Positions 1,277-30,169 of a stretch of 32,000 nucleotides of DNA are shown one piece after another; the first letter of the stretch is position 1, and the number at the start of each line of letters is the position of its first letter. The position numbers and the translations under genes were made by a program. Source of the DNA: Flavobacteriaceae bacterium (lineage in GTDB: Bacteria; Bacteroidota; Bacteroidia; Flavobacteriales; Flavobacteriaceae); the NCBI GenBank assembly GCA_965224465.1, contig OZ245049.1:4080001-4112000 (forward strand), read 5' to 3'. The notes beneath the pieces were generated by a model that was not told the origin of the DNA, made no database searches, and was given only the letters and a program-made list of their open reading frames with translations.

Positions 1277-1281
1277 TATTA

Positions 1282-9465: not shown

Positions 9466-9489
9466 TATAATTTTTTTTAAATAAAAACA

Positions 9490-10461: not shown

Positions 10462-10470
10462 GAGGTAATT

Positions 10471-15132: not shown

Positions 15133-15215
15133 AGGGACATTTGTTTGCTTAAATGATGGATTAGCGTCTATGTATCATCATCACAACAGATAAAAAACAA
15201 GAGTAGGCAGCATAT

Positions 15216-15256
15216 AAAAAAACCAAGTGATATAATGTATATCACTTGGTTTTTTT
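15216..15256. terminator. Bidirectional intrinsic terminator between convergent genes
   Basis: Perfect 12-bp stem CCAAGTGATATA (15223-15234) / TATATCACTTGG (15238-15249) with a 3-nt loop. Flanked by A7 upstream and T7 downstream. Confidence 0.8.
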
Positions 15257-15284
15257 GTTTTGAGTATAGTACATCAACCCCTTT

Positions 15285-16688
15285 TTAAAACAAGCCTGTT
15301 TTACGCAAAGAAATAAATCCACCAATATTTACAGGGCGATAGGTACCTGTATCAAACGAGCTACCTAGAATAATATCTATAGGTAGTTTTTTTATGTGTG
15401 GTATTTTACATTCCAAATAGCCGGAAAACTGTGTTGGTTTTGGGCTGTATTCACTTCCGAACCATCCAAAATAGGTAGTGTGACTTAGCATGGCTTTGTA
15501 TTCAATACTTTTAATAGTTCCTTTCAGACCTAGATTAAATGCCATAAAACGATTGTCCTTAAATCCTTCGGTGATGCCATTAGTACCTATATCTTTTGTG
15601 GTAAAATAAGGAGATCCGAGGCAGTTTCCAAAATAGGTCCATCCTGATTTGAATACGAAATTATTAAAATAATCATCTTTTCCTCTCGCCATAATTGGTT
15701 TGCCATTTTCATCTCTACCATGCGAAGAACTACCGCTCATGTTTTTGGTATATGTAAACTCTGTCAATAGGTGTGAAACAATAGCCGTTGGTTTTTTGAA
15801 ATCAACAAAGAACCCATAAATACCATCACGCCAATTCTGTAATTCTCTACCAGAGCGATCTTCAAAAGGATGGGAATAATAAAAGCTAATATTTTTACGG
15901 TCTCCTTTATAATCCAATTTCAATAAGTAAGACCCTAAATGGTTTCCTAAGGCATTTAAACGCTCGTTATCTACGGTGTTTGCATCTCCAGACATTCCAG
16001 AAACTACCCTTAAATAATCTTTAAAACTATGCGCCTGTTTTGAGCCGTTGATGCTAGTGCCTCCCCATTGTACATAATGGTTTAAGGCTGCCGTTAAGTT
16101 CCAGTGCTTATTTAGAGCCGCCCTAAAATAAATGCTTTTTTTATGAAGTCTTGTGTGGTCTATAAAACGAGGGTCGTTCATAAGGTAGTCTCCATACTGT
16201 CCTTTAAAAGAGAGCCATTGTTTGAAAACAGGAAAGGGGATGTATTGTGTAAGCTGGATATTGTATCCAGGTAAAGAGCGTGCATTGCCAGACTCCGTAA
16301 TATTTCCATTGGAAGAGGAGAGTCCTTGCCAGAGAATTGGATTGTGTTTTACACCTAGATCTAATTGTAATTTTTTATACCGAATACTACTGTATAGTTG
16401 GTTGATTAAGACGTCGTTTTCTTTAGCGATACTCCCTGTAAATTGAGCGCCATAGGAAAATTGCCAGTTTTTTAGATTGGAATCGTCAAAGTCTTTTGAG
16501 AGTCCAATAATCACCATTCCGTTATTGCTGTTTGGGACTGCACCTTGCTTGTTAGAAACCATCCAAAAGGGCAGTGTTTCTTTGCTAGAAAAGATAGAGC
16601 TAAGTTCTAAAGAGTATTTGTGTTTTTCTTGAGAGAATCCTTTATGTGCTATAAGTACTAGAAGTACAATAATGATATGTTTTTTCAT
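15285..16688 (-). CDS. Outer-membrane beta-barrel protein, capsule-assembly Wzi-like
   Basis: 467 aa with a signal peptide (MKKHIIIVLLVLIAHKGFSQ) and C-terminal Phe. YVQWGG...NALGNHLG...ISFYYSHPFEDRSG parallels the E. coli Wzi segments MQWGG / GNQLAG / FYGQMIGEDESG (recalled from memory, not aligned computationally). Confidence 0.55.
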   Translation of the reverse strand: MKKHIIIVLLVLIAHKGFSQEKHKYSLELSSIFSSKETLPFWMVSNKQGAVPNSNNGMVIIGLSKDFDDSNLKNWQFSYGAQFTGSIAKENDVLINQLYSSIRYKKLQLDLGVKHNPILWQGLSSSNGNITESGNARSLPGYNIQLTQYIPFPVFKQWLSFKGQYGDYLMNDPRFIDHTRLHKKSIYFRAALNKHWNLTAALNHYVQWGGTSINGSKQAHSFKDYLRVVSGMSGDANTVDNERLNALGNHLGSYLLKLDYKGDRKNISFYYSHPFEDRSGRELQNWRDGIYGFFVDFKKPTAIVSHLLTEFTYTKNMSGSSSHGRDENGKPIMARGKDDYFNNFVFKSGWTYFGNCLGSPYFTTKDIGTNGITEGFKDNRFMAFNLGLKGTIKSIEYKAMLSHTTYFGWFGSEYSPKPTQFSGYLECKIPHIKKLPIDIILGSSFDTGTYRPVNIGGFISLRKTGLF

Positions 16689-16977
16689 GTAGTTTTTTTA
16701 AAGGTGTAAAAGTACTGTTTTCTATGTAAACATAAGGAGGAGGTGGTGTTTTTTATCGCGTATGCGTATCTATAGTAAAAAAACCTTTCTATTTAAACAC
16801 AACAATGCCCAGTTGGTCTTTCTGTTCGCCATTTACAAGCCCATACAGTCCAACGTTCTTATTACTTCTTCCAAGTAGCTGGTTATTTTATTATTGAATA
16901 CACAAATAAAATACATATAAATTGAATTTTTCTCAAATTATCGCTAATTCAAAAATAAAATACAAAAAATGCAATAG

Positions 16978-17012
16978 TTTGCTTGTCTAGTCAGAATTTT
17001 AGTATAGATTTG
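16978..17012 (+). promoter_or_regulatory. Candidate Bacteroidota-type promoter (-33 TTTG, -7 TAnnTTTG) for the aromatic operon leader
   Basis: TAGATTTG at 17005-17012 fits the TAnnTTTG -7 consensus and lies 20 nt upstream of the leader ATG. TTTG at 16978-16981 and TTG at 16983-16985 are candidate -33 elements. Confidence 0.4.
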
Positions 17013-17031
17013 TCAATACAAAACAAGAACA

Positions 17032-17112
17032 ATGAATAATTTTAACACTTGGAGTTTCTGTTATTTTTACTTTTATTTGAAAGTAGAGAAGGAGACAGTA
17101 CGTGTTAATTAA
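17032..17112 (+). CDS. Leader peptide, 26 codons, rich in Phe/Tyr/Trp (MNNFNTWSFCYFYFYLKVEKETVRVN)
   Basis: Hand translation of ATG 17032 to TAA 17110-17112. 8 of 26 residues are aromatic, including a consecutive Y-F-Y-F-Y run. Lies between the candidate promoter and a terminator upstream of pheA. Confidence 0.6.
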   Translation: MNNFNTWSFCYFYFYLKVEKETVRVN

Positions 17113-17137
17113 GATATAAACTAACAAATAACAAAAA

Positions 17138-17168
17138 GTCTCAAAATTAATTTGAGGCTTTTTTTTTT
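17138..17168 (+). terminator. Intrinsic terminator inside the 5' leader of the aromatic operon (attenuator terminator)
   Basis: Stem GTCTCAAA (17138-17145) / TTTGAGGC (17151-17158) includes one G-U pair. Loop ATTAA, followed by T10 (17159-17168). It ends 21 nt before the pheA ATG, and there is no upstream + strand gene for it to terminate. Confidence 0.7.
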
Positions 17169-17189
17169 GGAAAAAACAGTAGGTAACTT

Positions 17190-18008
17190 ATGAAAGTAGC
17201 TATTCAAGGAATTAGAGGGTCATTTCACCATATTGTGGCGGAGCAATTTTTTGGAACAAACACCGATTTATTGGAATGCATGACATTTAGTGAAATGCCA
17301 GATTTATTGCATACCAAAGAGGCGAGTTCTGCTATTATGGCTATAGAGAATTCAATAGCAGGGGCTTTATTGCCAAACTATGCTTTAATAGATGAACATA
17401 ACTTGTCCATTTCGGGTGAATATTATTTGCCTATTTTGCACAATTTGATGGTTTTAAACGGGCAGAGAATTGAGGAGATCTCAGAAGTGTATTCTCATCC
17501 TATGGCTTTGTTGCAATGTAGGAAGTTCTTTAAAAGTTACCCACATATTAAGTTGATTGAGGATCAAGACACCGCTGAGGTGGCACGAAGAATCCATAGA
17601 AAAAAGTTAAAAGGGGTAGGCGCTATCGCTAGTGTTAGAGCAGCAGAATACTATGATTTAACAATTTTGGCTAGTGAAATTCAAACCATAAAAAACAATG
17701 CTACTCGTTTTGTGATTTTGAATAATTCAGGGTTGAAAACAAACCCATTAGCGGATAAAGTATCGATTAAATTTATATTGGAACACAAGACAGGGAGTTT
17801 AGGAGAAGTCTTACAAGTTTTTTCTAAGCACAATGTTAGTTTGTCTAAGATTCAATCATTACCCGTTATAGAATCACCTTGGGAATACGCATTTTTTGCG
17901 GATTTGGTTTTTGCAAGTTATCAGGATTATCAGTCAGCTATGCATGAGGTAGCATCAAGAGTATCAGATTTAAAAATATTAGGAGAATATAAAAAAAGTA
18001 AGAGATAA
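17190..18008 (+). CDS. pheA: Prephenate dehydratase
   Basis: 272 aa. PDT domain with the NNATRFVIL (TRF) motif and a C-terminal ACT domain (GSLGEVLQVFSKHNVSLSKIQSLP). Confidence 0.9.
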   Translation: MKVAIQGIRGSFHHIVAEQFFGTNTDLLECMTFSEMPDLLHTKEASSAIMAIENSIAGALLPNYALIDEHNLSISGEYYLPILHNLMVLNGQRIEEISEVYSHPMALLQCRKFFKSYPHIKLIEDQDTAEVARRIHRKKLKGVGAIASVRAAEYYDLTILASEIQTIKNNATRFVILNNSGLKTNPLADKVSIKFILEHKTGSLGEVLQVFSKHNVSLSKIQSLPVIESPWEYAFFADLVFASYQDYQSAMHEVASRVSDLKILGEYKKSKR

Positions 18009-19159
18009 TGCTTATCAATAAAGCACAAAGATTAAACGACGTAAAAGAGTATTACTTTTCTAAAAAATTAAGAGAAGTAGCGGCATTAAAATCCGCAGGA
18101 AAACCAATTATTAATATTGCAATTGGGAGTCCGGATTTGGATCCTCCAATTGAAGTTTTAAATGCACTTACGGGGGCATTGGAAGATGACACGGCACATG
18201 AATATAAAAGTTACCAAGGCATTCCTGAGTTTAGAGAGGCTGTTAGTGGTTTTTATAAAAAACACTATCAAGTAAGCGTAGATTCGACAGGAGAAATTTT
18301 GCCTTTGATGGGGTCTAAAGAAGGGATTTTACATATTTCTATGGCATTTTTAAACCGTGGAGATCAGGTATTGATTCCTAACCCAGGCTATCCTACATAT
18401 ACTTCGGTTACCAATTTGGTAGGCGCAAAACCTGTACTGTATGATTTGATAGCAGCGAATGGTTATTATCCAGATTTTGAGGTTTTAGAACAACAAGATT
18501 TGTCAAAGGTAAAAATAATGTGGGTAAATTATCCACAGATGCCGACAGGAGTAAAAGCAACAAAGGAATTGTTTGAGAAACTTATTTCTTTTGGGAAAAA
18601 GCATCAAATTTTAATAGTGAATGATAACCCATATAGCTTTATTTTAAATGATAATCCATTGAGTATTTTGGCTGTAGAAGGAGCAAAAGAAGTAGCATTG
18701 GAGCTCAATTCTTTAAGTAAAACATTTAATATGGCAGGATGGCGTGTCGGAATGTTGTTAGGAGCAAAAGAGTATATTAAAACGGTATTACAGGTAAAAA
18801 GCAATATGGATTCGGGAATGTTTTACGGCATTCAAAAAGGAGCTATTGCAGCCATGGAGCAGCCAGAAAGATGGTTTAAAAATTTGAATGCTGTTTATGC
18901 TTCTAGAAGAAAAATAGTTTGGGAGATATTAGATGTTTTTAACTGTTCTTATGCGAAGGATACCGCAGGATTGTTTGTTTGGGCAAAATTACCTGAAGAC
19001 ATGGATGCAGAAGTTTTTACAGATGAGTTGTTGTACAACAAAGACGTGTTTGTAACTCCAGGGACTGTATTTGGACCTATAGGAAAAGGGTATATCCGTA
19101 TAGCTCTGTGCGAATCGGAAGGCGATTTAAACGAAGTGTTAAACCGAATAAAACGTTAA
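18008..19159 (+). CDS. Class I/II PLP-dependent aminotransferase (aromatic/aspartate or LL-DAP-aminotransferase-like)
   Basis: 383 aa. NPGYPTY and the NSLSKTFNMAGWRVG PLP-lysine motif. The start overlaps the pheA stop (TAATG). Confidence 0.85.
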   Translation: MLINKAQRLNDVKEYYFSKKLREVAALKSAGKPIINIAIGSPDLDPPIEVLNALTGALEDDTAHEYKSYQGIPEFREAVSGFYKKHYQVSVDSTGEILPLMGSKEGILHISMAFLNRGDQVLIPNPGYPTYTSVTNLVGAKPVLYDLIAANGYYPDFEVLEQQDLSKVKIMWVNYPQMPTGVKATKELFEKLISFGKKHQILIVNDNPYSFILNDNPLSILAVEGAKEVALELNSLSKTFNMAGWRVGMLLGAKEYIKTVLQVKSNMDSGMFYGIQKGAIAAMEQPERWFKNLNAVYASRRKIVWEILDVFNCSYAKDTAGLFVWAKLPEDMDAEVFTDELLYNKDVFVTPGTVFGPIGKGYIRIALCESEGDLNEVLNRIKR

Positions 19160-19162: not shown

Positions 19163-20020
19163 ATGGAAAGAATTGTAGTGATAGGTTTGGGGCTTATAGG
19201 AGGTTCTATGGCATTGGATTTGAAAAAACGTTTGCCAGCGGAAATTACAGGTGTCGATATTTCGGATGCACATGCAGAAAAAGCATTAGATTTAGGTGTT
19301 ATAGATAAGATTGGAAAGATAGAGGATGTTGTAAATGCAACGATTGTAATTGTAGCAGTACCTGTCAATTTAACGGTAAAAGTGGTTTCTGAAGTCCTTG
19401 ACTTGATAGGGGAGAAGACCTTGGTTTTTGATGTGGGATCTGTAAAAGAAACTATTTGTGAGAAATTGAGCTCGCATTTAAGAAGAAAGAACTTTGTAGC
19501 AGCGCATCCGATTGCGGGAACTGAGTTTTCTGGTCCTGAAGCAGCAATTTTAGGATTGTTTGATAAAAAGGTGAATATTTTATGTGAAACAGAAAAATCA
19601 GATTGGAGAATTTTGGACAAAGCATTGAGTTTGTTTAAAGTATTGAACATGCGAATTAAAATGATGGGATCTGCAGAACATGATAGACATATTGCTTACG
19701 TATCGCATTTGTCACATGTAAGTTCGTTTATGTTAGGAAAGACTGTTCTAGAAATTGAACGCAATGAAGAACATATTTTTGATATGGCAGGTAGTGGGTT
19801 TGCCTCTACAGTACGTTTAGCAAAGAGTTTACCTTCTACATGGACACCTATTTTTATGGGGAATAAAGAGAATTTACTTGCTTCTTTGGATGGGTTTATT
19901 AAAAATTTAAACGAGTTTAGAGCGATTATAGAACAGGAGGATTCCAATGAATTATCCAAAATAATGAACGATACTAATTATATTAAAACAGTATTGAGTG
20001 GCATTAAAGAAGATGCCTAA
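19163..20020 (+). CDS. tyrA: Prephenate dehydrogenase
   Basis: 285 aa. IGLGLIGGSMAL Rossmann motif, VAAHPIAGTE and HDRHIAYVSHLSH motifs. Starts 3 nt after the aminotransferase stop. Confidence 0.9.
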   Translation: MERIVVIGLGLIGGSMALDLKKRLPAEITGVDISDAHAEKALDLGVIDKIGKIEDVVNATIVIVAVPVNLTVKVVSEVLDLIGEKTLVFDVGSVKETICEKLSSHLRRKNFVAAHPIAGTEFSGPEAAILGLFDKKVNILCETEKSDWRILDKALSLFKVLNMRIKMMGSAEHDRHIAYVSHLSHVSSFMLGKTVLEIERNEEHIFDMAGSGFASTVRLAKSLPSTWTPIFMGNKENLLASLDGFIKNLNEFRAIIEQEDSNELSKIMNDTNYIKTVLSGIKEDA

Positions 20021-20046
20021 TCATAAATAAATAAAATAAATAAAAT

Positions 20047-20100
20047 AATTCCAAATATAGTTCCAAATGACCGTCAAGAAATAGCGTGTTTTTTGTTTTA
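20047..20100 (+). repeat. Partial, diverged left end of the ~160-bp intergenic element
   Basis: AATTCCAAATATAGTTCCAAATGACCGTCAAGAAATAGCGTGTTTTTTGTTTTA aligns by eye with the element's left TIR, first hairpin and T-rich/GTTTTA segment. Confidence 0.5.
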
Positions 20101-20252
20101 AATGAGTTAAAAAATAGAAAGATAATCATAATTATTGCTTTGTTTTAAATGAGGAGAAAACTAAAAAGAAACTGTTTGTTTTGATTTTTTGAAGATATTA
20201 TTGGAGTGTTATAATAAAAATAGGCGATACCGCTTATTGCAATACAAATAAA

Positions 20253-21326
20253 ATGGAAAACAACAAAGAATGTAGACAGTGGTTAGACGCCATGCAATTG
20301 AATCACCCTTTAGTAATAGCAGGTCCTTGTAGTGCAGAGACCGAAGAGCAAGTGATGGAAACAGCTAAGCTATTACAAAAAACAGATACCAATGTGTTTA
20401 GAGCAGGTATTTGGAAACCAAGAACCCGTCCAGGTCAGTTTGAAGGCGTGGGAGAAAAAGGGTTGAAATGGTTGCAACAAGTAAAAGCAGAAACAGGGAT
20501 GATGGTTACTACTGAGGTAGGAAACGCAGACCACGTGGAAAAGGCTTTAAAACACGGTATCGATATATTGTGGATAGGGGCACGTACCACTGTGAATCCA
20601 TTTGTAGTCCAAGAAATAGCTGATGCCTTAAAAGGAGTGGATATTCCTGTATTGGTAAAAAACCCTGTAAACCCAGATTTAGCTTTATGGTTGGGAGCTG
20701 TAGAGCGTATTCAAACAGCAGGTATTACGCAATTAGGAGTAATTCATAGAGGTTTTTCTACATATAATACGGGACATTATCGCAATAAGCCACAATGGAG
20801 CTTGCCGATAGAATTGAAAAAAGAATTTCCAGATTTACCTTTAATTTTAGATCCTTCTCATATTTGTGGACGTAGAGATACCTTATTGGATGTTTCACAA
20901 ACTGGATTGGATTTGAATTTTGATGGATTTATGATCGAAACTCATATAGATCCAGACAATGCATGGAGTGATGCTGCTCAGCAAATTACACCTGCAAGAT
21001 TGAATGAGATCACCAAAGAACTAAGAATTAGACAAAAAAGCAGTAATGCAGAAGAGTTTCAACGAAAATTAACCATGCACCGTCATGAGTTGGATTTATT
21101 GGATGCAAACCTCGTAGAATTATTATCGGACAGAATGGCTGTGTCAAGTCAGATAGGTGTTTTAAAAAGAAATGAAAATGTTTCAATTTTACAAAGCAAC
21201 CGTTGGGCAGATATTTTAAAGACCATGGTGGAGTCAGGTGAAAAATTAGGGTTGACAAAAGATTTTGTAGAAACTATTTTTAAAGCAATCCATGTAGAGT
21301 CTATTAAAATACAACAAAAGAAATAA
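20253..21326 (+). CDS. Bifunctional 3-deoxy-7-phosphoheptulonate (DAHP) synthase (type I-beta) / chorismate mutase (C-terminal AroQ domain)
   Basis: 357 aa. GPCSAE, RAGIWKPRTRPGQFEGVG and LDPSH motifs. The C-terminal ~90 aa (LDLLDANLVELLSDRMAVSSQIGVLK...IFKAIHVESIKIQ) look like AroQ chorismate mutase. Confidence 0.9.
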   Translation: MENNKECRQWLDAMQLNHPLVIAGPCSAETEEQVMETAKLLQKTDTNVFRAGIWKPRTRPGQFEGVGEKGLKWLQQVKAETGMMVTTEVGNADHVEKALKHGIDILWIGARTTVNPFVVQEIADALKGVDIPVLVKNPVNPDLALWLGAVERIQTAGITQLGVIHRGFSTYNTGHYRNKPQWSLPIELKKEFPDLPLILDPSHICGRRDTLLDVSQTGLDLNFDGFMIETHIDPDNAWSDAAQQITPARLNEITKELRIRQKSSNAEEFQRKLTMHRHELDLLDANLVELLSDRMAVSSQIGVLKRNENVSILQSNRWADILKTMVESGEKLGLTKDFVETIFKAIHVESIKIQQKK

Positions 21327-21426
21327 TAAACAGGGAACTTTAGTCCCAATGATTTGTCTTTGTTTCCTATAAGTGACAGCAGATTCAAAAATAACTTGAG
21401 ACAAGATTCACCTTATTGGGTGTATT

Positions 21427-21471
21427 AAAAACAAAAACGACTATTGCTTCTGCAGGGTCGTTTTTGTTTTT
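21427..21471 (+). terminator. Intrinsic terminator after the DAHP synthase-CM gene
   Basis: Perfect 15-nt inverted repeat AAAAACAAAAACGAC (21427-21441) / GTCGTTTTTGTTTTT (21457-21471) with a 15-nt loop. The GC core CGAC/GTCG is followed by a T-rich tail. Confidence 0.7.
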
Positions 21472-21519
21472 ATATCAGATACATTTCCAAATGACGGTTT
21501 AGAAATAGAATTATTTTTT
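21472..21519 (+). repeat. Partial copy of the intergenic element (tail fragment fused to left-end hairpin)
   Basis: TATATCAG + ATACATTTCCAAATGACGGTTTAGAAATAGAATTATTTTTT matches the element's left TIR, hairpin and T-tract. The internal part is absent. Confidence 0.55.
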
Positions 21520-21705
21520 ACAAGATAAAAATTAAAATAGTTGAGCATAACCTTTGTTATGGGAATCTAATTTTACAAGTTGTGTGTTCTATAGACATGC
21601 TTATTGAAGGGAACTGTTCGAAGTCACCAATCACTAATCCGTTACTAATTATTAAATGTCAAAACAATTATACTATCTTTGCGTTGATAAAAAAACAAAT
21701 GTATA

Positions 21706-22644
21706 GTGGAAGGTATTGTTACAAAATCAACAGGGAGTTGGTATTCAGTGAGGACAGAAGAAGGAGTTCCGTATGATTGCCGTATTCCTGGGCGTTTTCG
21801 AATGAAAGGAATTAAAAGCACCAATCCAGTGGCTGTGGGTGATCGGGTTAGTTTTGACTTAGAGGCTGATAAGAAAACAGGTGTTATTCAGGTGATTCAC
21901 GATCGGACTAATTATATTGTGCGAAAATCCGTGAATTTATCCAAGCAGACACATATTATCGCTGCCAATATTGACATGGCTTTTTTATTAGTAACTATTG
22001 ATAATCCTCCTACATCTACAGGGTTTATCGATCGGTTTTTAGCGACAGCAGAGGCGTATTCTATTCCTGTAATTATAGTGTTTAATAAAATGGATATTTA
22101 TACAGCAGCAAATACAGCTCGCAACGAGGAATTGACAGCAATTTATACAAAAATTGGATATAAATGTATAAATGTGTCTGCGACTACAGGGCATAATATT
22201 GAGATCATTAAAACGATCATGAAAGATAAAGTGAGCATGTTTTCGGGGCATTCAGGAGTCGGGAAATCTACCTTGGTAAACGCAGTTGAAAAAGGACTAA
22301 ATCTAAAAACAGGAGAGGTTTCTAAGCAGCATAAACAAGGAATTCACACCACTACTTTTGCCGAAATGTTTAAGCTTTCTTTTGGAGGGTATATAATTGA
22401 TACGCCTGGGATCAAAGGATTTGGGGTGGTCGCCTTTAAAAAAGAGGAGATTGGGGATTATTTCCCAGAAATTTTCAAAATAAAAGGAGGCTGTAAATTC
22501 AATAATTGTATTCATGTAAACGAGCCACATTGTGTAGTGAAAGATGCGGTTGCAACAGATGAGATTTCTGAATCTCGTTATACAAGTTATTTACAATTAC
22601 TAGATGATGAAGATCAACATTACCGTGTAGATATCTATAATTAA
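21706..22644 (+). CDS. rsgA: Ribosome small-subunit-dependent GTPase A
   Basis: 312 aa with a GTG start. N-terminal OB-like GIVTKSTGSWYSV, circularly permuted GTPase (NKMD ... GHSGVGKST) and a C-terminal zinc knuckle CKFNNCIHVNEPHC. TATCTTTG (21674-21681) upstream fits TAnnTTTG. Confidence 0.9.
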   Translation: MEGIVTKSTGSWYSVRTEEGVPYDCRIPGRFRMKGIKSTNPVAVGDRVSFDLEADKKTGVIQVIHDRTNYIVRKSVNLSKQTHIIAANIDMAFLLVTIDNPPTSTGFIDRFLATAEAYSIPVIIVFNKMDIYTAANTARNEELTAIYTKIGYKCINVSATTGHNIEIIKTIMKDKVSMFSGHSGVGKSTLVNAVEKGLNLKTGEVSKQHKQGIHTTTFAEMFKLSFGGYIIDTPGIKGFGVVAFKKEEIGDYFPEIFKIKGGCKFNNCIHVNEPHCVVKDAVATDEISESRYTSYLQLLDDEDQHYRVDIYN

Positions 22645-22679
22645 TCTCTTTTTTTGTTAAATTATTAGTAGTTAAAAAT

Positions 22680-23132
22680 ATGAAAGCAGTTGTACAACGT
22701 GTTCGTAAAGCATCCGTAACAATCAATGATTCTATTGAAAGTTCGATTGGTAATGGGATTTTAATATTGTTAGGAATCGCTCCGGAGGATAGCCTTGAAG
22801 ACATAGATTGGTTGGTGAAAAAAATAAGCAATATGCGTATTTTTGACGATGCGAATGGAGTGATGAATTTATCGGTGATAGATGTTAAAGGTGAAGTTCT
22901 AGTTGTCAGTCAATTTACACTACAGGCAAGTACAAAAAAAGGAAACCGCCCTTCTTATATAAAAGCAGCAAAACCTGATATAGCGATTCCGTTATACGAA
23001 ACTTTTAAGCAGCATTTGACAACAGCGATGGGTCAAGATGTTAAAAGTGGTGTTTTTGGTGCAGACATGGAAGTGTCTTTAGTGAATAATGGTCCTGTAA
23101 CAATCATCATAGATTCTAAGAATAAAATCTAA
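22680..23132 (+). CDS. dtd: D-aminoacyl-tRNA deacylase
   Basis: 150 aa. MKAVVQRV, VSQFTL, KGNRPS, GVFGADM and NNGPVT motifs. Confidence 0.9.
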   Translation: MKAVVQRVRKASVTINDSIESSIGNGILILLGIAPEDSLEDIDWLVKKISNMRIFDDANGVMNLSVIDVKGEVLVVSQFTLQASTKKGNRPSYIKAAKPDIAIPLYETFKQHLTTAMGQDVKSGVFGADMEVSLVNNGPVTIIIDSKNKI

Positions 23133-23147
23133 TTATTTTCTGTAAAT
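23086..23147 (+). repeat. Direct repeat copy 1 (authentic dtd 3' end plus 15 nt past the stop)
   Basis: CAATCATCATAGATTCTAAGAATAAAATCTAATTATTTTCTGTAAAT (23101-23147) recurs at 23263-23309 with 2 mismatches. Looser similarity extends about 15 nt upstream. Confidence 0.8.
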
Positions 23148-23162
23148 GAATAGGGTTCTATA

Positions 23163-23258
23163 ACACCTGCTTTTTTTTAAAAACAAACCCAGTGCCCACA
23201 ATAATCTACAGCGATTTATACAAGCTATTTGTATCGGTTATTTTGGATTGTAATTGGT
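23163..23258 (+). repeat. Internally diverged or deleted copy of the intergenic element (intact right end 23225-23258)
   Basis: Starts with ACACC and ends with CTATTTGTATCGGTTATTTTGGATTGTAATTGGT, nearly identical to the right ends of the copies at 27.7 and 27.9 kb. The middle is not alignable by eye. Confidence 0.5.
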
Positions 23259-23309
23259 CTAACAATCAGCATAGATTCTAAGAATAAAATCTAATTATTT
23301 TTTGTAAAT
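23250..23309 (+). repeat. Direct repeat copy 2 (pseudo 3' end of dtd: ...TISIDSKNKI*)
   Basis: Offset is exactly 162 nt from copy 1. It carries the last 10 dtd codons with one replacement, the stop codon and 15 nt of downstream sequence. Confidence 0.8.
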
Positions 23310-23324
23310 TGCTGAGGTTCAATA

Positions 23325-23484
23325 ATACCAAATACATCTCCATTGACGGTTTAGATATGGAATTATTTTTTGTTTTAGCTAGGCGAAAAGTCTAAGGATA
23401 CCCTTAGCTATCGTTCTGTTTTTTAACAAGGCTAGAACGTAAAATAAACTATTTATATCGGTCATTTTGGAGTGTAATTGGGAT
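23325..23484 (+). repeat. Intergenic element, full copy A (~160 bp)
   Basis: Left end ATACCAAATACATCTCC and right end GGAGTGTAATTGGGAT. Internal GTTTTAGCTAGGCGAAAA...CTAAGGATACCCTTAG...GCTAGAACGTAAAATAAACTATTTATATCGG aligns with copies B, C and D. Confidence 0.8.
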
Positions 23485-23582
23485 AAGTGGTATAAGACCT
23501 ACACTTTTTTATTGAAATACATTTCCTTGTAAGTGTGTTTTCGAGGTTTATTTGAGTAATTATATATTAATTGTTTGTATTT

Positions 23583-23831
23583 ATGAGAAAATATTATTTG
23601 CTAGTTGTATTACTGTTGGCTGTTTTAAGCGTTAATTCACAATCTTCTTATGCTTTTGATGCCATTCCAATTCCTTTATTGAAAAATGCGAATGCCATCA
23701 TTAGAGATCAAAATATTTCTATTCAGATTGTGGCTTTTGATAAAATGAAAATTAAGATCAAAAAGGCGATTACTATTAAAAATAAGTTAGGAGATAGGTA
23801 TAATTCTGTGCGGGTTCACTATAATCAATGC
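23583..23831 (+). pseudogene. N-terminal fragment of a DUF3857/transglutaminase-like/DUF3858-family secreted protein, truncated by an IS insertion
   Basis: Signal peptide MRKYYLLVVLLLAVLSVNSQ. The reading frame ends at a TGA (23832-23834) formed by the first bases of the IS inverted repeat. Confidence 0.75.
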
Positions 23832-24952
23832 TGAATTCAAGTCACAAACGCAACTTTTAGTTAAATAATAATTGTTCCATTACAAATATAGGGTTTTGAT
23901 ATTTATGTCTCTTCCTAGGTCTGTTATTTAATTTTGTTTCTACCTCTTTGATTCTTTGATCTGTTAGGTTTGTAAAGTCACTTCCTTTGGCAAAATATTG
24001 TCTAATCAAACCATTTAAATTTTCGTTAGATCCTCTTTCCCAAGAGTGATATGGATGCGCAAAAAAGTAATCAATACATAAATTTTCTGCAACCTGCTCA
24101 TGGCCTGCAAATTCTTTTCCATTATCAGCTGTTATAGTATGTAGATAAGGCTTCCAGTCTTCTAATATTTCATTGATAGCTTTAGTGACAACAACTGCTT
24201 CTTTAGAGCTTACTTTTTTCATTTTAAGCATTCCAGAAGCTCTATCATTTACGGTAAGTATGGCTTGATTATGGTTTTTACCTATGATTAAATCGACCTC
24301 TAAATCTCCAAATCGATTTCTTTGTTCAACAACTTCAGGGCGTTGTTCTATACTAATACGATTCTTTATAACCCCTCTAGAATCCTTTGATGAGCCACGT
24401 TTTCTATATCTCCTTCCCTGTCTGCGAAGGTGTGTATGTAAATCACCATCATTCCTCTTGTCTTCCCTAATATGCTGATATATACGCTCAATAGACACCG
24501 TTTCTTTACCTTGTTTTTTTAGGACACCAACTACTTGCTCAGGACTATAATCGTCTCGCAATAACAACTCTATTGCTTGTTGAATATCTTCTGTAAAGCG
24601 TTTTCTTTTAGGCTTTTCTTTATGACGTTTAGCATACTTTTTTTGGGCTAATTCATGCTTGTAAACTCCATTTCTTTTGTCTGAATTACGCTTAATCTCT
24701 TTGCTAATAACAGACTTGTCTTTTCCTATAGCAGCTGCTATCTCAACCTGTTTATAACCTTGTTTTAACATGCAACAAATTGTGTATCTTTGCGCTTGGG
24801 TGATGTGTTTCATACAACTTCTTTTTTCGAGATTTGAGACCGTAAGATACATATCCATCAAGACAAGAAAGGTAGGTTTTCCTACTTTTCTGTTTTGAAA
24901 ATATAACCATCATAGAATCAAATCGAAAAGTTGCGTTTATTAGTTGAATTTA
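23832..24952 (-). mobile_element. IS30-family insertion sequence (1121 bp)
   Basis: 27-nt imperfect terminal inverted repeats, 23832-23858 (TGAATTCAAGTCACAAACGCAACTTTT) and 24926-24952, match at 23 of 27 positions by hand. They enclose a single DDE transposase gene. Confidence 0.85.
23857..24813 (-). CDS. IS30-family DDE transposase
   Basis: N-terminal HTH (MKHITQAQRYTICCMLKQGYKQVEIAAAIGKDKSVISKEIKRN). Catalytic region with GDLEVDLI, TADNGKEF and SWERGSNENLNGLIRQY. The ORF is open to 24861, and the start at the MKHIT Met is preferred. Confidence 0.9.
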   Translation of the reverse strand: MKHITQAQRYTICCMLKQGYKQVEIAAAIGKDKSVISKEIKRNSDKRNGVYKHELAQKKYAKRHKEKPKRKRFTEDIQQAIELLLRDDYSPEQVVGVLKKQGKETVSIERIYQHIREDKRNDGDLHTHLRRQGRRYRKRGSSKDSRGVIKNRISIEQRPEVVEQRNRFGDLEVDLIIGKNHNQAILTVNDRASGMLKMKKVSSKEAVVVTKAINEILEDWKPYLHTITADNGKEFAGHEQVAENLCIDYFFAHPYHSWERGSNENLNGLIRQYFAKGSDFTNLTDQRIKEVETKLNNRPRKRHKYQNPIFVMEQLLFN

Positions 24953-26791
24953 AGTAGTAAAGAGGGGGGATTTAAAGTTATTACGGAAGTACATGAAAGG
25001 GTTAAGATTTATAATAAAGAGGGCTATGATTGGGCGACAAAAAAAATACGATATTATACCTCCTCTTCTTCTGATTCTGAGAAAGTAATATTGAAAGGAG
25101 CTAAAACGTACCGATTGGAAGAAGGTAAAGTCAAGGCGTATAAGTTTAAGAAATCAGATGTTTTTCTTGAGAAAGTAAATAAGTATTGGTCTAAAAAAAT
25201 ATTTACCATGCCTAAGTTGACCGAAGGGTGTGTTGTAGAATGGAAATATAAATTAATCTCACCCTATAAATCAATTGATAAATTGAATTTGCAATATGGA
25301 ATACCTGCAAAAAGAGTACAGTGTAAAATTGAGATTCCAGAGTATTATATCTTTGACCTAAAATCCTTAGGGTTTGAAAGGGTTGAAATGAAAAAATATG
25401 TCAAAGCAGGGTCTATTATCCTTACAAGTAAAAGTAGGTCTGGTGGATGGGGAAAGGTTAAAGTCAATTATTCTTCTCAGAATGTTAAATATGATATTAA
25501 TGTGATGGAGGTGAGTAAGGATTTTATGCCTGCTTTAAAAGAGGAATCTTACGTGAATAATATCAATAACTATAGAACTTCAATTAAATATGAATTGTCC
25601 GCAGTCAGTTGGCCAAACGAACCTATAAAATACTTTTCTAAAAACTGGAGTGATGTAGCAAAAACGATACTGAAAAAGAGTGGTTTTGGTGCAGAAATGA
25701 ATAAGAAATCATATTTTAAAAAAGATCTTGAACTATTAAAAAAGGAGGCTAAAAATCAACAAGAACTTCTGAATAGTATTTTTAGTTTTGTGAAAAGCAA
25801 GGTGAAATGGAATGGATATAATGGTTTATATACGGATAAAGGAGTTAAGTCTGCTTATAAAAACGGGACAGGAAATATTGCTGAGATTAATTTAATTTTA
25901 GTTGCAATGCTTCGCGAAGCTGGGATTGCTGCCAATCCAGTATTAGCGAGTACACGTAGTAATGGTGTGCCAGTGTTTCCAACCATAGACGGTTTTAATT
26001 ACGTGTTAGCTGCTGTTGAAAAAGTAGGGAACGTAATCTTATTAGATGCATCGGAGAAGTATAGTGCCCCAAATATCTTGCCTTCTAGAATTTTGAATTG
26101 GAAGGGGCGTATTGTTAGAGAAGATAAAACATCTGATTGGGTGGCACTTATCCCTGTAAAACATTCAAAAAAAGACTGTATTCTAAGTGTTATTATTAAT
26201 GATGATGATGAGATCAACGGTTTTTTAAGAACTAAATATTCGAATAATGCAGCTTTGAAATACAGAAATAATTACAATGCGTTTTCCGATGAAGAACTCC
26301 TAGAGGAAATAGACGAGAAGAATAAAGAGATCGATGTGTCGTTAGCAAACATAAGATTTAAGGAGGATATTCATAAATCCATAGTTGAAACCGTAAAGTT
26401 TAGTTCTGAGGATTTGTTAGAAGAGGTAAACGGAGAAGTGTTTCTAAAGCCGCTGTTGTTTCTAGGAGAAACAACCAATCCTTTTAAAATGGAAAACAGA
26501 GTGTACCCTATAGATTATGGGACTCCTTGGTCAAATAGTTATAAGATTTCTATTAAAATCCCTGAAAATTATAACGTGGTTTCTGTTCCGGAAAGTATAG
26601 AATTACTACTGAAAGATGGGATGGGACATTTTGTAATGTTTATAAAGGAGCAAAAAGGAGGCCTAAGTGTCAAGGCAAGTTTGTCTATCAATACAGGAAT
26701 GATTCCCGCCTCTGATTATGAATTGTTGAAGGTTTTTTATAAAAAAATGTTAAAAAAGATGAACGAGAAGATTGTTTTTAAGAAAATGTAA
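24953..26791 (+). pseudogene. C-terminal portion of the IS-disrupted DUF3857/transglutaminase-like/DUF3858-family protein
   Basis: GTGNIAEINLILVAMLREAGIAANPVLASTRSNG...FNYVLAAVE...ILLDASE is the transglutaminase-like core with the catalytic Cys position substituted. The frame joins that of 23583-23831 once 23832-24952 is removed. Confidence 0.75.
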
Positions 26792-26847
26792 CTTTTTTTA
26801 GTATATTCGACGCTTATACTAACCTTAACTAATACAAACATAAAAAA

Positions 26848-27495
26848 ATGAAAAAAGTAATTTTTATATTAGCTGTTGTTGGACTTGCATTCACATCTTG
26901 TAAGGATAACGAGAAGAAATCAGAAGCTAAAAAAGAAGCAGAAGTAGAGAAAAAAGTTATTGAGAAAGCAGTAGCTTATAAAGGAGATTATGTTGTAGAC
27001 ATAAGTTCTTCAGAATTAAAATGGAAAGGTTTTAAACCTACGGGATCTCACCATGGATCTTTGAAGATTAAATCGGGAAGTTTTTCTTTGACTGATGGAA
27101 AAGTTGTTTCTGGGGATTTCTTGATGGACATGACAAGTATTGTAGTCTTAGATCTTCCTGCAGATGATCCATACAATGCAAAATTGATGGGGCACTTAAA
27201 ATCGGAAGAATTTTTTGGTGTTGAAGCTTATCCTACCGCACATTTTAAAATAACCAAGGTTGAGAAAAATACTGTTTCTGGAGATTTAACCATCAAAGGA
27301 CACACAGAAAATGTGACGTTTAAAGCGACTACTTCTGAAAATAACGGGGTCGTTACTTTTAAAAGTGAAACATTTAAAATTGATAGAACTGATTTTAAAA
27401 TCAAATACAAGTCAAAAAAGTTTTTTGAGAACTTAAAAGATAAATTTATCAACGATGAAATTGAAATTTCAATTGTTGTAAGTTCAGTAAAATAG
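26848..27495 (+). CDS. YceI-like domain lipoprotein
   Basis: Lipobox LAFTSC. SELKWKGFKPTGSHHGSLKIKSGSF...GHLKSEEFFGVEAYPTAHFKITKVE...GDLTIKGHTENVTF matches the YceI-like polyisoprenoid-binding fold signature. Confidence 0.8.
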   Translation: MKKVIFILAVVGLAFTSCKDNEKKSEAKKEAEVEKKVIEKAVAYKGDYVVDISSSELKWKGFKPTGSHHGSLKIKSGSFSLTDGKVVSGDFLMDMTSIVVLDLPADDPYNAKLMGHLKSEEFFGVEAYPTAHFKITKVEKNTVSGDLTIKGHTENVTFKATTSENNGVVTFKSETFKIDRTDFKIKYKSKKFFENLKDKFINDEIEISIVVSSVK

Positions 27496-27520
27496 ATTTT
27501 TTAAATAAAATATTAAAAAA

Positions 27521-27554
27521 GTCATCTCATTAATTTTGAGGTGACTTTTTTTTT
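27521..27554 (+). terminator. Intrinsic terminator after the YceI-like gene
   Basis: Stem GTCATCTCA (27521-27529) / TGAGGTGAC (27537-27545) has one G-U pair and a 7-nt loop, followed by T9. Confidence 0.75.
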
Positions 27555-27605
27555 GTTTATGAATGATAGTTTGCAGTTGGTAGTGGGCAGTGGGCGGTTG
27601 GCAGA

Positions 27606-27744
27606 GGTGGTTTGAAATGGAATTATTTTTTGTTTTAGCTAGGCGAAAAATGGAAGGATAGCCTTCGCTATCGTTCTATTTTTGAACAACGCTAAAACGT
27701 AAAATAAACTATTTGTATCAGTTATTTTGGATTGTAATTGGTGT
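27606..27744 (+). repeat. Intergenic element copy B (left TIR missing, replaced by a G-rich tract)
   Basis: GGTGGTTTGAAATGGAATTATTTTTTGTTTTAGCTAGGCGAAAAATGGAAGGATAGCCTTCGCT...GGATTGTAATTGGTGT. Nearly identical to copy C, with a 161-nt period. Confidence 0.85.
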
Positions 27745-27745
27745 T

Positions 27746-27904
27746 ACACCAAATACATTTCAAAGTGGTGGTTTGAAATGGAATTATTTTTTGTTTTAGC
27801 TAGGCGAGAAATGGAAGGATAGCCTTCGCTATCGTTCTATTTTTGAACAACGTTAAAACGTAAAATAAACTATTATATCAGTTATTTTGGATTGTAATTG
27901 GTGT
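27746..27904 (+). repeat. Intergenic element copy C (full, 159 bp), head-to-tail with copy B
   Basis: The left TIR ACACCAAATACATTTC and the reverse complement of the right end (ACACCAATTACAATCC) match at 13 of 16 positions. The last base overlaps the stop codon of the minus-strand Lrp/AsnC gene. Confidence 0.85.
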
Positions 27905-28362
27905 TATAGAGGGACTTTAATCTCGTTTTTGGCAGAACTCATTACGATATTGCTTCTTACATTTCCGACCGCTGATAATACTGATAATTTATTTTTTAAA
28001 AACAATTGGTAATGTTGGATGTCTGGAACTACTACTTTTAATAAGTAGTCGTAATTTCCAGCTACATGGTGGCATTCCAAAACTTCATCTAATTTAATAA
28101 TAGCATTTTCGAATTGGTTGATGAGGTTTTTTGAATGTACTTGTAAAGAAACTTGACAATAGACTGTCATTCCGTAGCCCAATTTTAGGTGATCTACCAA
28201 GGCTACATATTTTGTAATAATACCATTTCTTTCAAGTCGTTTAATACGTTCGTAAGTAGGTGTAACCGTGAGTCCTACACGCATGGAAATCTCCTTGGTA
28301 TTTGCTTTGCTGTTTTCTTGCAATAAGTTGACTATTTTTATATCGATAGTATCCAAATCCAT
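27904..28362 (-). CDS. Lrp/AsnC-family transcriptional regulator
   Basis: 152 aa. N-terminal HTH (LDTIDIKIVNLLQENSKANTKEISMRVGLTVTPTYERIKRLERNGII) and a C-terminal RAM/ligand domain. Confidence 0.9.
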   Translation of the reverse strand: MDLDTIDIKIVNLLQENSKANTKEISMRVGLTVTPTYERIKRLERNGIITKYVALVDHLKLGYGMTVYCQVSLQVHSKNLINQFENAIIKLDEVLECHHVAGNYDYLLKVVVPDIQHYQLFLKNKLSVLSAVGNVRSNIVMSSAKNEIKVPL

Positions 28363-28376
28363 TCTTTTAGATTTTT

Positions 28377-28394
28377 ATCCTATAATTATAGGAT
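28377..28394. promoter_or_regulatory. Perfect 18-bp palindrome in the Lrp / PLP-lyase divergent intergenic region (candidate operator)
   Basis: ATCCTATAATTATAGGAT is its own reverse complement and lies 15 nt upstream of the Lrp start codon. A tandem CTATATTA direct repeat follows at 28421-28428 and 28430-28437. Confidence 0.4.
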
Positions 28395-28524
28395 TATTAA
28401 GGTGCTCAAAGATAATAAAACTATATTAACTATATTAGTTAGATTGATTTTCTGTTATCTGTAATAAAACCAGTTTTTAAAATGGAATAATTATATATTT
28501 ACCTTGAATTTAATAAGTTATACC

Positions 28525-29742
28525 ATGGTAGATACAAAAGAAATGGCTTTAAAGCCAGCAAATAAAATTCAAGATATACAGTATTTTGGAGAGTTCGGAG
28601 GGGTAAATCCATCTATTTCAGATTCAGCTACATATACTTTTTTGGCGGCGAAAACAATGCTAGATACCTTTGAAGGGCATGCAGAGGGTTGTTATTTGTA
28701 TTCAAGACATACCAGTCCTAGTAATTTACATTTAGGAGATGCTTTGGCTGCTATGGAATATACGGAAACTGCCAATGTTGCATCTTCAGGAATGGGAGCT
28801 ATTACTTCGGTTATTTTGCAAATCTGTGGTGCAGGAGATCACATTGTTTCAAGTAGAACTATTTATGGTGGAACCTATGCTTTTGCAAAGAATTTTTTAC
28901 CAAAACTAAATATTACTACGTCGTTTGTAGATATTACAAACTTAGAAAAAATAGAAGCTGCGATCAACGAGAATACAAAAATGATCTACTGTGAAGGTAT
29001 AAGCAATCCATTATTAGAAATTGCAGACATTCCTGCATTGGCTAAGATGGCTAAGAAACATGGAATTCCCCTAGTTGTAGACAATACTTTTTCGCCCTTA
29101 ATTATCACTCCTCAAAAAATGGGAGCAGATATTACCATTCATAGTTTGACCAAATTTATTAATGGAACCAATGATACTGTTGGTGGCGTTGTATGTGGAA
29201 CACACGATTTTATCAATGCATTGAAAAGTGTAAACGATGGTGCTGCTATGTTGTTAGGTCCTGTAATGGATAGTTTAAGATCTGCCAGTATTCTTAAAAA
29301 CATGCGTACACTTCACATTCGTATGAAGCAACATAGTTACAATGCTAAATACTTAGCGGAACGTTTTGAGAATGATGGTTTAAAAGTGGTTTACCCTGGA
29401 TTGGAAAGTCATAAAGGACATGAGTTATTCAAGTCTATGTACAATTCTGAGTATGGTTTTGGAGGGATTATGACCGTTGAAGTTGGTGGCTTAGATAAAG
29501 CCAACGAGTTGATGGAACTTATGCAATCAGAAAACTTAGGATATTTAGCAGTGAGTTTAGGTTTCTATAAAACCCTCTTTAGTGCGCCAGGTACGAGTAC
29601 TTCTTCTGAAATCCCTGAAGATGAACAAGTAGAAATGGGATTGTCGGATGGTATTATTCGTTTTTCTATCGGATTGGATAATGATATTGAAAGAACCTAC
29701 CAACAAATGAAAAAATGCATGCAAACACTGAATGTCTTGTAA
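28525..29742 (+). CDS. Cys/Met-metabolism PLP-dependent enzyme (methionine gamma-lyase / O-acylhomoserine sulfhydrylase family)
   Basis: About 405 aa from the ATG at 28525 (the ORF is open from a TTG at 28504). GGVNPSISDSATYTF, SSGMGAI and HSLTKFINGTND (PLP lysine in SxTK) motifs. Confidence 0.8.
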   Translation: MVDTKEMALKPANKIQDIQYFGEFGGVNPSISDSATYTFLAAKTMLDTFEGHAEGCYLYSRHTSPSNLHLGDALAAMEYTETANVASSGMGAITSVILQICGAGDHIVSSRTIYGGTYAFAKNFLPKLNITTSFVDITNLEKIEAAINENTKMIYCEGISNPLLEIADIPALAKMAKKHGIPLVVDNTFSPLIITPQKMGADITIHSLTKFINGTNDTVGGVVCGTHDFINALKSVNDGAAMLLGPVMDSLRSASILKNMRTLHIRMKQHSYNAKYLAERFENDGLKVVYPGLESHKGHELFKSMYNSEYGFGGIMTVEVGGLDKANELMELMQSENLGYLAVSLGFYKTLFSAPGTSTSSEIPEDEQVEMGLSDGIIRFSIGLDNDIERTYQQMKKCMQTLNVL

Positions 29743-29750
29743 ATGGTGTA

Positions 29751-29911
29751 ACCCAAATACCTTTCCAAGTGAGGGTTTGGAAAGGGACTTGTTTTGTTGT
29801 TTTAGCTAGGCGAAAACCGGAAGGATAGCCTTCGCTGTCGTTCTGTTTTTTAACAACACTAGAACGTAAAATAAACTATCTATATCGGTTGTTTTGGAGC
29901 GTAATTTGTGT
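29751..29911 (+). repeat. Intergenic element copy D (full, 161 bp)
   Basis: ACCCAAATACCTTTCC...GTTTTAGCTAGGCGAAAACCGGAAGGATAGCCTTCGCTG...GAGCGTAATTTGTGT. Lies between the lyase stop codon and its terminator. Confidence 0.85.
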
Positions 29912-29912
29912 A

Positions 29913-29967
29913 ACACCAATTACCTTTCCAAGTGACAGTTTAGAAATGGAATTATTTGTTGTTTTGC
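29913..29967 (+). repeat. Truncated next unit of the element (left TIR + hairpin + T-rich segment), head-to-tail with copy D
   Basis: ACACCAATTACCTTTCCAAGTGACAGTTTAGAAATGGAATTATTTGTTGTTTTGC. Separated from copy D by a single A. Confidence 0.75.
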
Positions 29968-29979
29968 ATCCCCAATATT

Positions 29980-30007
29980 ACCACGGCTTTTACGTCGTGG
30001 TTTTTTT
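29980..30007 (+). terminator. Intrinsic terminator of the PLP-lyase transcript
   Basis: Stem ACCACGGC (29980-29987) / GTCGTGGT (29994-30001) has one G-U pair. 6-nt loop TTTTAC. A T7 run at 30001-30007 includes the closing T. Confidence 0.8.
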
Positions 30008-30169
30008 ATACCTATGTTTTATGTGGATGCGTTTAGATATTGATTATATTAAACATTTTAGATGAACTTGTATTAATTTCGTTACAAATAGTGACTATGT
30101 GGCTTATTTTAATTTATTTGCATAGCCTTTTTAAAAACCGTAAACTTACAAAAACTTAAATACAATTAT

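Follow-up and report, generated by a model that had tools for sequence, protein, structure and literature searches.

What kind of DNA is repeated, always in the same orientation, between the housekeeping genes of the 32,000 nt stretch of Flavobacteriaceae DNA analysed here (OZ245049.1, positions 4,080,001 to 4,112,000; the window)? A reading of the letters alone, here called the sequence-only reading, had described a family of intergenic repeats of about 160 bp between positions 20047 and 29967, and had offered three options: a non-autonomous transposon, a REP/BIME-like element or a dispersed structured RNA. We conclude that the repeats are very probably copies of a miniature inverted-repeat transposable element (MITE), in this case a non-coding mobile element of approximately 158 bp with a 3 bp TAA/TTA target duplication. 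The family, previously uncharacterised, is found in a small marine Flavobacteriaceae lineage and appears to be undescribed. Of the three options, the transposon is supported by the target-site duplication, by empty sites in relatives and by dispersal; the REP/BIME option was not borne out, and a structured RNA is neither established nor excluded as an added property.

Copies in the window and beyond

The four long copies were used to build an nhmmer profile, which was run on the window and recovered them at E values of 3e-48 to 3e-52 (spans 23325-23486, 27598-27747, 27745-27906 and 29749-29914), together with fragments. A direct-repeat search of the window yielded repeat families D1-D3 independently of the profile, and the family first described from the letters alone is real. 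Because of this independent recovery, and because the fold of 27746-27904 has a z of -8.4 against dinucleotide shuffles, chance is excluded. The element was found at five window loci, every match is on the + strand, and no copy was detected in bases 1-19000 at E<1. The single orientation and the lack of copies in what had been called the polysaccharide locus had both been described correctly. The features are as follows.

20046-20212, + strand: degenerate near-full copy (nhmmer 20048-20187, E 0.001; family D9)
21470-21519, + strand: solo 5' module (nhmmer 21473-21519, E 0.016; family D2)
23098-23163, + strand: direct repeat of the 3' end of the D-aminoacyl-tRNA deacylase gene (dtd), first copy (family D4)
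23164-23259, + strand: derivative copy E1, 96 bp (nhmmer 23220-23262, the 3' part, E 9e-8)
23260-23325, + strand: direct repeat of the dtd 3' end, second copy (family D4)
23326-23483, + strand: full copy, 158 bp (nhmmer E 3e-50; fold -50 kcal/mol)
23514-23526, + strand: 12 nt exact match AAATACATTTCC to the inner 5' terminal repeat (direct reading; not significant alone)
27606-27743, + strand: copy without ~20 nt at the start of its 5' arm (nhmmer 27598-27747, model positions 17-166, E 4e-48)
27747-27903, + strand: full copy, 157 bp (nhmmer E 7e-51; fold -56.1 kcal/mol, z -8.4)
29752-29910, + strand: full copy, 159 bp (nhmmer E 3e-52)
29914-29967, + strand: solo 5' module (nhmmer 29913-29965, E 8e-7)

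The sequence-only reading had located the long copies correctly, but its units were 1-3 nt too long at each end, since the flanking trinucleotide is the target duplication described below (cores 23326-23483, 27747-27903 and 29752-29910). What it took for a fragment at 20047-20100 is a degenerate near-full copy that continues to ~20212, and its fragment at 23163-23258 stands as a derivative with the corrected core 23164-23259.

Species-representative genomes and metagenomes were scanned with a two-anchor pattern from the conserved core, TTAGCTAGGCG N30-60 ACGTAAAATA. Three true copies were returned, all at unrelated loci. Two are full copies on separate contigs of the Flavobacteriaceae metagenome-assembled genome (MAG) NORP150 (L001, 6517-6675, and L003, 492-650), and the third is a full copy on the JGI contig Ga0209292_1001256 (L005, 4033-4193), from a metagenome that is also the source of locus L009. 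Each is flanked by trinucleotides of its own. The family is therefore dispersed, with copies in two other sources, and is not confined to the 10 kb stretch in which it was noticed. Two further candidates, L002 in a Phycisphaerae MAG and L004, were rejected as chance pattern matches, the latter probably being coding sequence on reading. As the two-anchor pattern is strict, more distant relatives would escape detection. A full copy used to query plasmids and phages (BLAST, distant mode) gave no match. Among viral contigs the two-anchor pattern had 0 matches, and two terminal-repeat patterns had 16 and 62, all of them due to chance and none fitting the element profile.

Element ends and target-site duplication

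The core of the element, YACCAAATACATTTCC...GGATTGTAATTGGTR, is 157-161 bp. The unit as a whole forms a single long, imperfect palindrome. Terminal inverted repeats make up its outermost 16-18 bp and were seen in all complete copies. Direct reading confirmed the 13 of 16 matching terminal positions counted previously, and over longer ends CACCAAATACATTTCAAA and CACCAATTACAATCCAAA match at 15 of 18. The end bases co-vary across copies (CACC..GGTG, TACC..GGTA and TGC..GCA). Copies are 71-88% identical in pairwise comparisons, and a central block (GTTTTAGCTAGGCG, AACGTAAAATAAAC) is invariant in seven.

Three bases were read on each side of the aligned ends of all copies. An identical trinucleotide flanks both sides in six of the seven copies that have both ends: TAA in E1, 23326-23483, 29752-29910 and L003, and TTA in 27747-27903 and L005. 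The seventh, L001, has CAA/TAA, a single mismatch. These flanks are direct rather than inverted repeats, as inverted repeats would pair TAA with TTA, and TAA and TTA switch in concert. The window background, per position, is 0.034 for TAA and 0.037 for TTA, which would put the same TWA at both ends of a given copy in only ~0.0025 (0.25%) of cases. In addition, the solo 5' ends at 20049, 21473 and 29914 are preceded by TAA, TTA and TAA, respectively, and each of the tandem pairs 27606|27747 and 29752|29914 has its middle trinucleotide in common. The element makes a 3 bp TWA target-site duplication, a feature that the sequence-only reading had proposed looking for, and its boundaries can be written TWA + YACC...GGTR + TWA.

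Open reading frames (ORFs) within the element are short. Those of the + strand have 12-14 codons; the - strand has one of 28 codons in three of six copies, and one copy has neither. Examples are 23359-23397 (+) and 23385-23471 (-). The + strand frame, MELFFVLARRK(V/I) in five of six copies, was considered as a hidden peptide gene and rejected, because its substitutions are not conservative and it is missing from some copies. The 28 aa frame on the - strand (MTDINSLFYVLALLKNRTIAKGILRLFA) was rejected as a gene because it is present in only three of the six and is not conserved. Judged by this pattern, the two small ORFs are probably not genes, in line with the earlier view that the element has no coding capacity.

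Empty sites in related genomes

The copies in the window lie among housekeeping genes, namely those for prephenate dehydrogenase (PDH), DAHP synthase/chorismate mutase, RsgA, dtd, a YceI-like protein, Lrp/AsnC, a methionine gamma-lyase-like enzyme (MGL) and NhaC, together with a DUF3857 gene that has been broken up by an IS30-family transposase gene. Closest to the MGL protein of the window are P0001 (100% identical), MAG and metagenome proteins (90-94%) and Lutibacter proteins (~84%). Syntenic loci from four related genomes (L006, L007-L009, L088 and L089) were compared with the window; MGL identity to the window protein was 90% for L006 and 92% for L007-L009 (two representatives searched).

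Gene order is conserved in all of these loci, and they have zero copies at the five intergenic sites that are occupied in the window. Between PDH and DAHP synthase the window has 232 bp, compared with 55 and 47 bp in L006 and L007. The dtd-DUF3857 gap is 438 bp in the window and 134 and 127 bp in relatives, and the MGL-NhaC gap is 427 bp and 213 and 214 bp. The window thus exceeds its relatives in these gaps by about one or two element lengths. The dtd site of the window reads GGTTCAA-TAA-[element]-TAA-GTGG, and that of L006, with just one TAA, reads GTTCAG-TAA-ATCC. L006 and L007 keep the terminator at the MGL site and have no element there, while in the window a pair of elements lies between the stop codon and the terminator. 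Insertion polymorphism, another check that had been proposed at the outset, is therefore evident. The element explains the oversized intergenic regions and the repeats of this Lutibacter-like genome, gives annotators exact element boundaries and flags sites that differ between related genomes.

A weak profile match in L006/L089 (~18376-18455, - strand, E 0.07-0.2) is not significant, and could be a relic of a 3' arm. The copy at 23325 is 88% identical to L001 and 83% identical to the copy at 27746. As copies within a genome are no closer than copies in different genomes, the family is old, and the window copies show much decay.

A MITE and its likely mode of insertion

Small size, the lack of a conserved ORF, terminal inverted repeats, a duplication of fixed length, dispersed copies and empty sites in relatives together define a MITE. 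Prokaryotic MITEs are about 50-800 bp (PMC11602168), a range in which the 157-161 bp core falls. The element has no transposase gene, and its terminal inverted repeats exceed the 10-15 bp minimum. MITEs of Bacteroidota have already been catalogued by the tens of thousands in automated surveys (PMC11602168), and with such numbers known one further family is unsurprising.

Insertion with duplication of a 3 bp TWA target would be the signature of a DDE transposase that makes a 3 bp staggered cut, and this transposase would be supplied in trans by an autonomous element outside the window. With such a target, copies would be expected to insert at stop codons or a few bases beyond them, or in the AT-rich stretch around terminators. 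A later insertion or a local duplication beside a resident copy would give head-to-tail pairs with a common middle TWA, and decay could then leave solo 5' or 3' modules. Copies between a stop codon and a terminator would have to be co-transcribed into the 3' untranslated region (UTR), where the + strand transcript could fold to a rod of -40 to -56 kcal/mol. We infer the type of transposase, the co-transcription and any effect on the mRNA. The 3 bp TWA duplication could in turn point to the partner transposase.

The G+C content of the window is 32%. Insertions were found on, or 0-30 nt from, TAA stop codons (27904-27906, 29740-29751 and 20018-20048), and with a TWA target in an AT-rich genome stop codons are natural landing sites. 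Immediately ahead of the insertion at MGL, the native sequence (29734-29748, GTCTTGTAAATGGTG) agrees with the 3' terminal repeat in 12 of 15 bases, and L006 has TGTAATT (~11215-11232) at the equivalent position. Likeness of this kind may mean that the transposase prefers targets resembling its own ends, or may be chance in AT-rich DNA.

Several points weigh against a MITE. No autonomous element with these ends was found in the window or in the retrieved loci, and the latter have no matching end pair spaced more than one element length apart. The sole insertion sequence (IS) in the window, of the IS30 family, has unrelated ends, as the sequence-only reading had stated. A uniform orientation is unexpected for simple cut-and-paste transposition and needs a second explanation. 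The intergenic DNA of the relatives is too diverged for base-exact reconstruction of the empty sites, and identities of 71-88% together with many fragments give no sign of recent activity. The copy numbers given are those of the window and the scanned loci. Elements of the IS30 family make 2-3 bp duplications, and the window IS30 was tried as the partner; it was rejected because its end alignment scores of 13-17 are at the shuffle means of 13.6-15.6.

Orientation, folding and a possible role in RNA

At the five window loci, and at L001 and L005, the element points in the same direction as the upstream gene; L003 is left out of this comparison. The sequence-only reading had placed all copies downstream of + strand genes, which agrees with the five window loci. 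For 27746-27904, predicted folding energies are -56.1 kcal/mol (z -8.4) on the + strand and -31.2 kcal/mol on the - strand, and all seven copies fold better on the + strand. Each arm, 5' or 3', can also pair within itself as a local hairpin, and in 29751-29911 the 5' hairpin wins the minimum-energy fold.

A tentative addition to the MITE reading would account for the uniform orientation: copies may have been retained or tolerated in one orientation because the 3'-UTR hairpin stabilises or terminates the upstream mRNA, or is processed in it. We consider this possible, but closer to doubtful than to probable. The stronger + strand fold and its consistency across the seven copies are in its favour, as is the orientation with the upstream gene at seven loci (five in the window, L001 and L005). 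Among changes from Watson-Crick pairs, 22 give G.U on the + strand and 6 give A.C (binomial p 0.004), and in a strand-neutral, arm-against-arm alignment the figures are 53 versus 10 cells. GC skew within the element is +0.15 to +0.27, L003 included, although the L003 locus itself is at -0.13, and in three copies the apical hairpin and T-run scored as terminator-like.

Other observations argue against it. The rod has 91% of its cells paired, but covariation over the seven copies is not significant, with three pairs showing double changes, a number that 77 of 500 shuffles also reach, and with 63-114 of 500 shuffles reaching the observed covariation measures. The G.U excess was possibly inherited from one master copy, in which case the counts lack independence. 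The window also has a strong G bias on its + strand (GC skew 0.19, GC3 skew 0.33), and mutational bias would push in the same direction. The five window loci are on one replication direction, so their common orientation does not amount to five independent observations. Finally, the pair 27606/27747 is antisense to the convergent Lrp gene, the stop codon of which is the right-hand TTA. The strand-asymmetric fold and the orientation thus hint at selection at the RNA level, along lines reported for Correia and ERIC elements, but do not prove it.

A stronger form of this idea, that the element is a mobile RNA module kept only in the sense orientation, with its + strand rod acting as a 3'-UTR stabiliser, terminator, processing site or protein-binding RNA, strikes us as improbable. 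Under it, the G.U asymmetry at L003, a locus of opposite skew, would reflect selection on the RNA. In a variant, the orientation may come from strand-specific transposition, which would be atypical for elements with terminal inverted repeats and target-site duplications.

A scan for sigma-70 promoters found 46 where 45 were expected, which is no enrichment, although Bacteroidota-type promoters are outside the models of the tool. On reading, an exact match to TAnnTTTG occurs only in the 27606/27747 pair. If the sense orientation and the G.U-rich fold hold genome-wide, the MITE would offer a system in which to ask whether mRNA 3'-end effects filter MITEs in Flavobacteriaceae.

Less likely origins of the repeats

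A dispersed family of structured RNAs, whether non-coding RNA genes or cis-regulatory elements, that had been kept by common descent and not inserted as mobile DNA would also give a stable, strand-asymmetric fold and an invariant central block, though in L001, L003 and L005 the invariance is partly forced by the search pattern. However, Rfam searched at gathering thresholds with the whole window gave no match, and at E up to 10 with 19900-30100 it gave only weak matches to unrelated families, far below gathering scores, two of which overlap element fragments (21486-21563 and 29934-30005). No RNA family already described in Rfam 15 was therefore recognised. Flavo-1, HEARO and the self-cleaving ribozymes, which we take to be Rfam families, would be covered by this result. 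The syntenic sites are empty in four related genomes, copies are flanked by 3 bp direct repeats, and there are tandem, truncated and decayed copies. This origin is largely refuted by the target duplications and empty sites, and we give it very little credence.

We rate equally low the proposal that the repeats are REP/BIME-like and mobilised by a RAYT (IS200-like) protein, or are single-stranded DNA palindromes of the IS200/IS605 type, with a single orientation arising from replication-strand bias. It gains from the position of all window copies on the G-rich, probably leading, strand, and from the palindromic element itself, as the G.T pairs of one strand would also be compatible with a single-stranded DNA intermediate. 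However, IS200/IS605 elements have no terminal inverted repeats, make no target duplication and target the 3' side of one fixed tetra- or pentanucleotide, whereas the element has 16-18 bp terminal inverted repeats and a 3 bp direct duplication that varies between TAA and TTA. Moreover, the window ORFs include neither a RAYT nor a TnpA gene.

Local duplication alone, segmental or tandem and without transposition in the 10 kb stretch, fits the tandem partners, which are closest relatives (27606/27747, 88%; 29752/29914, shared derived bases), and the 65-70 bp piece of dtd duplicated beside E1. It is the least credible origin of all and, refuted as a full explanation, stands for the tandem pairs only: two other sources have copies at unrelated loci, identity between copies is 82-83% across window loci against up to 88% across genomes, and each locus has its own TWA duplication.

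An attC site or integron cassette was also considered and rejected, as the flanking housekeeping genes are syntenic in relatives and, on reading, the ends have no RYYYAAC/GTTRRRY cores.

Comparison with known elements

The Correia elements (CREE/NEMIS) of Neisseria are ~100-160 bp, non-coding and near genes, have terminal inverted repeats and an AT-only target duplication, and are co-transcribed and able to form long mRNA hairpins. RNase III processing, IHF sites and promoter activity have been documented for them. The MITE described here is also small, bears terminal inverted repeats, has an AT-only duplication and no coding capacity, is adjacent to genes and is predicted to form a long hairpin. 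However, Correia elements duplicate 2 bp (TA) and have 26 bp repeats, compared with the 3 bp TWA and 16-18 bp repeats found here, share no sequence similarity with the MITE and belong to another phylum.

ERIC/IRU sequences of enterobacteria, imperfect palindromes of ~127 bp in transcribed intergenic regions, have reported orientation-dependent effects on flanking mRNA, and the predicted folding of the MITE shows a comparable strand asymmetry. The two differ in sequence, which is unrelated, in target duplication and in size. BOX elements of Streptococcus pneumoniae are intergenic and foldable and consist of 5', central and 3' parts that also occur solo or incomplete. The MITE likewise has solo 5' and 3' modules, but BOX has no clear terminal inverted repeats or target duplications, and the sequences are unrelated. 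REP units, which are 20-40 nt, RAYT-associated and make no target duplication, resemble the MITE in being intergenic, palindromic and downstream of genes, and differ from its ~158 bp, its 3 bp duplication and the lack of a RAYT gene among the window ORFs.

A 3 bp TWA target-site duplication is a hallmark of PIF/Harbinger elements (PMC4482050), and Tourist-type MITEs of the PIF/Harbinger superfamily thus share exactly the duplication seen here. The IS5 family is related to PIF/Harbinger, and the target of bacterial IS5 has been given as ANT (PMC4482050). However, PIF/Harbinger elements are eukaryotic, and the analysis turned up neither an IS5-like transposase nor a matching terminal repeat, so any link to PIF/Harbinger and IS5 would come from the duplication.

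Individual copies and their surroundings

The degenerate copy at 20046-20212 lies 26 nt past the PDH stop codon. Its TAA is at 20046-20048, its core starts at 20049 (TTCCAAATATAGTTCC...), and its decayed 3' end, ATTATTGGAGTGTTATAAT, is at about 20197-20215. It contains an internal duplication with a 47 bp period (20092-20122 and 20139-20169; family D9). The solo 5' module at 21470-21519 consists of TTA (21470-21472) followed by TATCAGATACATTTCCAAATGACGGTTTAGAAATAGAATTATTTTTT, and is directly behind the hairpin/T-run of the DAHP synthase/chorismate mutase gene.

The region downstream of dtd is more complex. The direct repeat at 23098-23163 comprises the last 35 nt of dtd and 30 nt downstream, with TAA at both ends. 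Its second copy ends in the TAA (23323-23325) that is the left target duplication of the full copy 23326-23483. These two repeats (family D4; 23098-23167 versus 23260-23329, 65-70 bp, 87% identity) bracket E1, which is made up of a CACC 5' end, ~50 nt of unrelated sequence and the last ~40 nt of the 3' arm, and is flanked by TAA at 23161-23163 and 23260-23262. The arrangement may go back to an attack by the two transposon ends on separate TAA sites, ~68 bp from each other, with an overlong duplication that preserved dtd as the result, or to tandem duplication of the flank plus element followed by decay of E1. The full copy, with TAA at 23323-23325 and 23484-23486, has dtd (stop codon 23130-23132) on its left and a weak hairpin/T-run (~23485-23512) on its right. 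The 12 nt match at 23514-23526 is possibly a relic of another copy, but is too short for proof.

In the copy at 27606-27743, the missing 5' end has been replaced by a G-rich run with a 7 nt period at 27571-27605. The TTA that follows this copy (27744-27746) is common to it and to the full copy 27747-27903, and the two are 88% identical and mutual closest relatives. The full copy has TTA on both sides (27744-27746 and 27904-27906), the second of which, read on the - strand, is the TAA stop codon that closes the convergent Lrp/AsnC gene (ORF 27904-28362, - strand). The full copy 29752-29910, flanked by TAA at 29749-29751 and 29911-29913, starts 9 nt past the MGL stop codon (29740-29742) and is upstream of the MGL terminator (29980-30001). 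The solo module at 29914-29967 has its left TAA in common with this neighbour, and the derived bases TACC and GTTGTTTT are present in both.

The G-rich run at 27571-27605 reads GCAGTTG GTAGTGG GCAGTGG GCGGTTG GCAG. A similar motif sits inverted inside E1 (23187-23199, - strand), and L007 has comparable 7 nt repeats (AGTCACT) at 2715-2773. The motif may represent a second short repeat family of these genomes.

The IS30-family IS occupies 23826-24957 and encodes a 334 aa transposase on the - strand (NF033563, E 1e-87). Its terminal repeats are ~25 bp (AATTCAA.T.A.AAACGCAACTTTT). In relatives, two DUF3857 genes (637 and 666-667 aa) are found here; the window retains an 87 aa stub and one ORF of 615 aa, indicating that the IS30 insertion was accompanied by loss or rearrangement of ~2 kb.

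Bases 1-19000 of the window contain a long run of + strand genes with tight spacing, the polysaccharide locus of the sequence-only reading. This part has no MITE copy despite intergenic gaps of 704 bp (7046-7748) and 502 bp (16689-17189). Repeats of other kinds are present in the relatives. In the YceI-Lrp intergenic region of L007, a tandem array of 4.1 copies of a 49 bp unit (91% matches) is found at 9171-9369, the position of the MITE pair in the window, and this convergent gap therefore seems to collect repeats. Between rsgA and dtd, L006 has a stretch of ~180-220 bp (3647-3864; 3629-3846 in L089), an insertion that is unrelated to the MITE. It is missing from the window and from L007, where the rsgA-dtd gap is only 35-37 bp.

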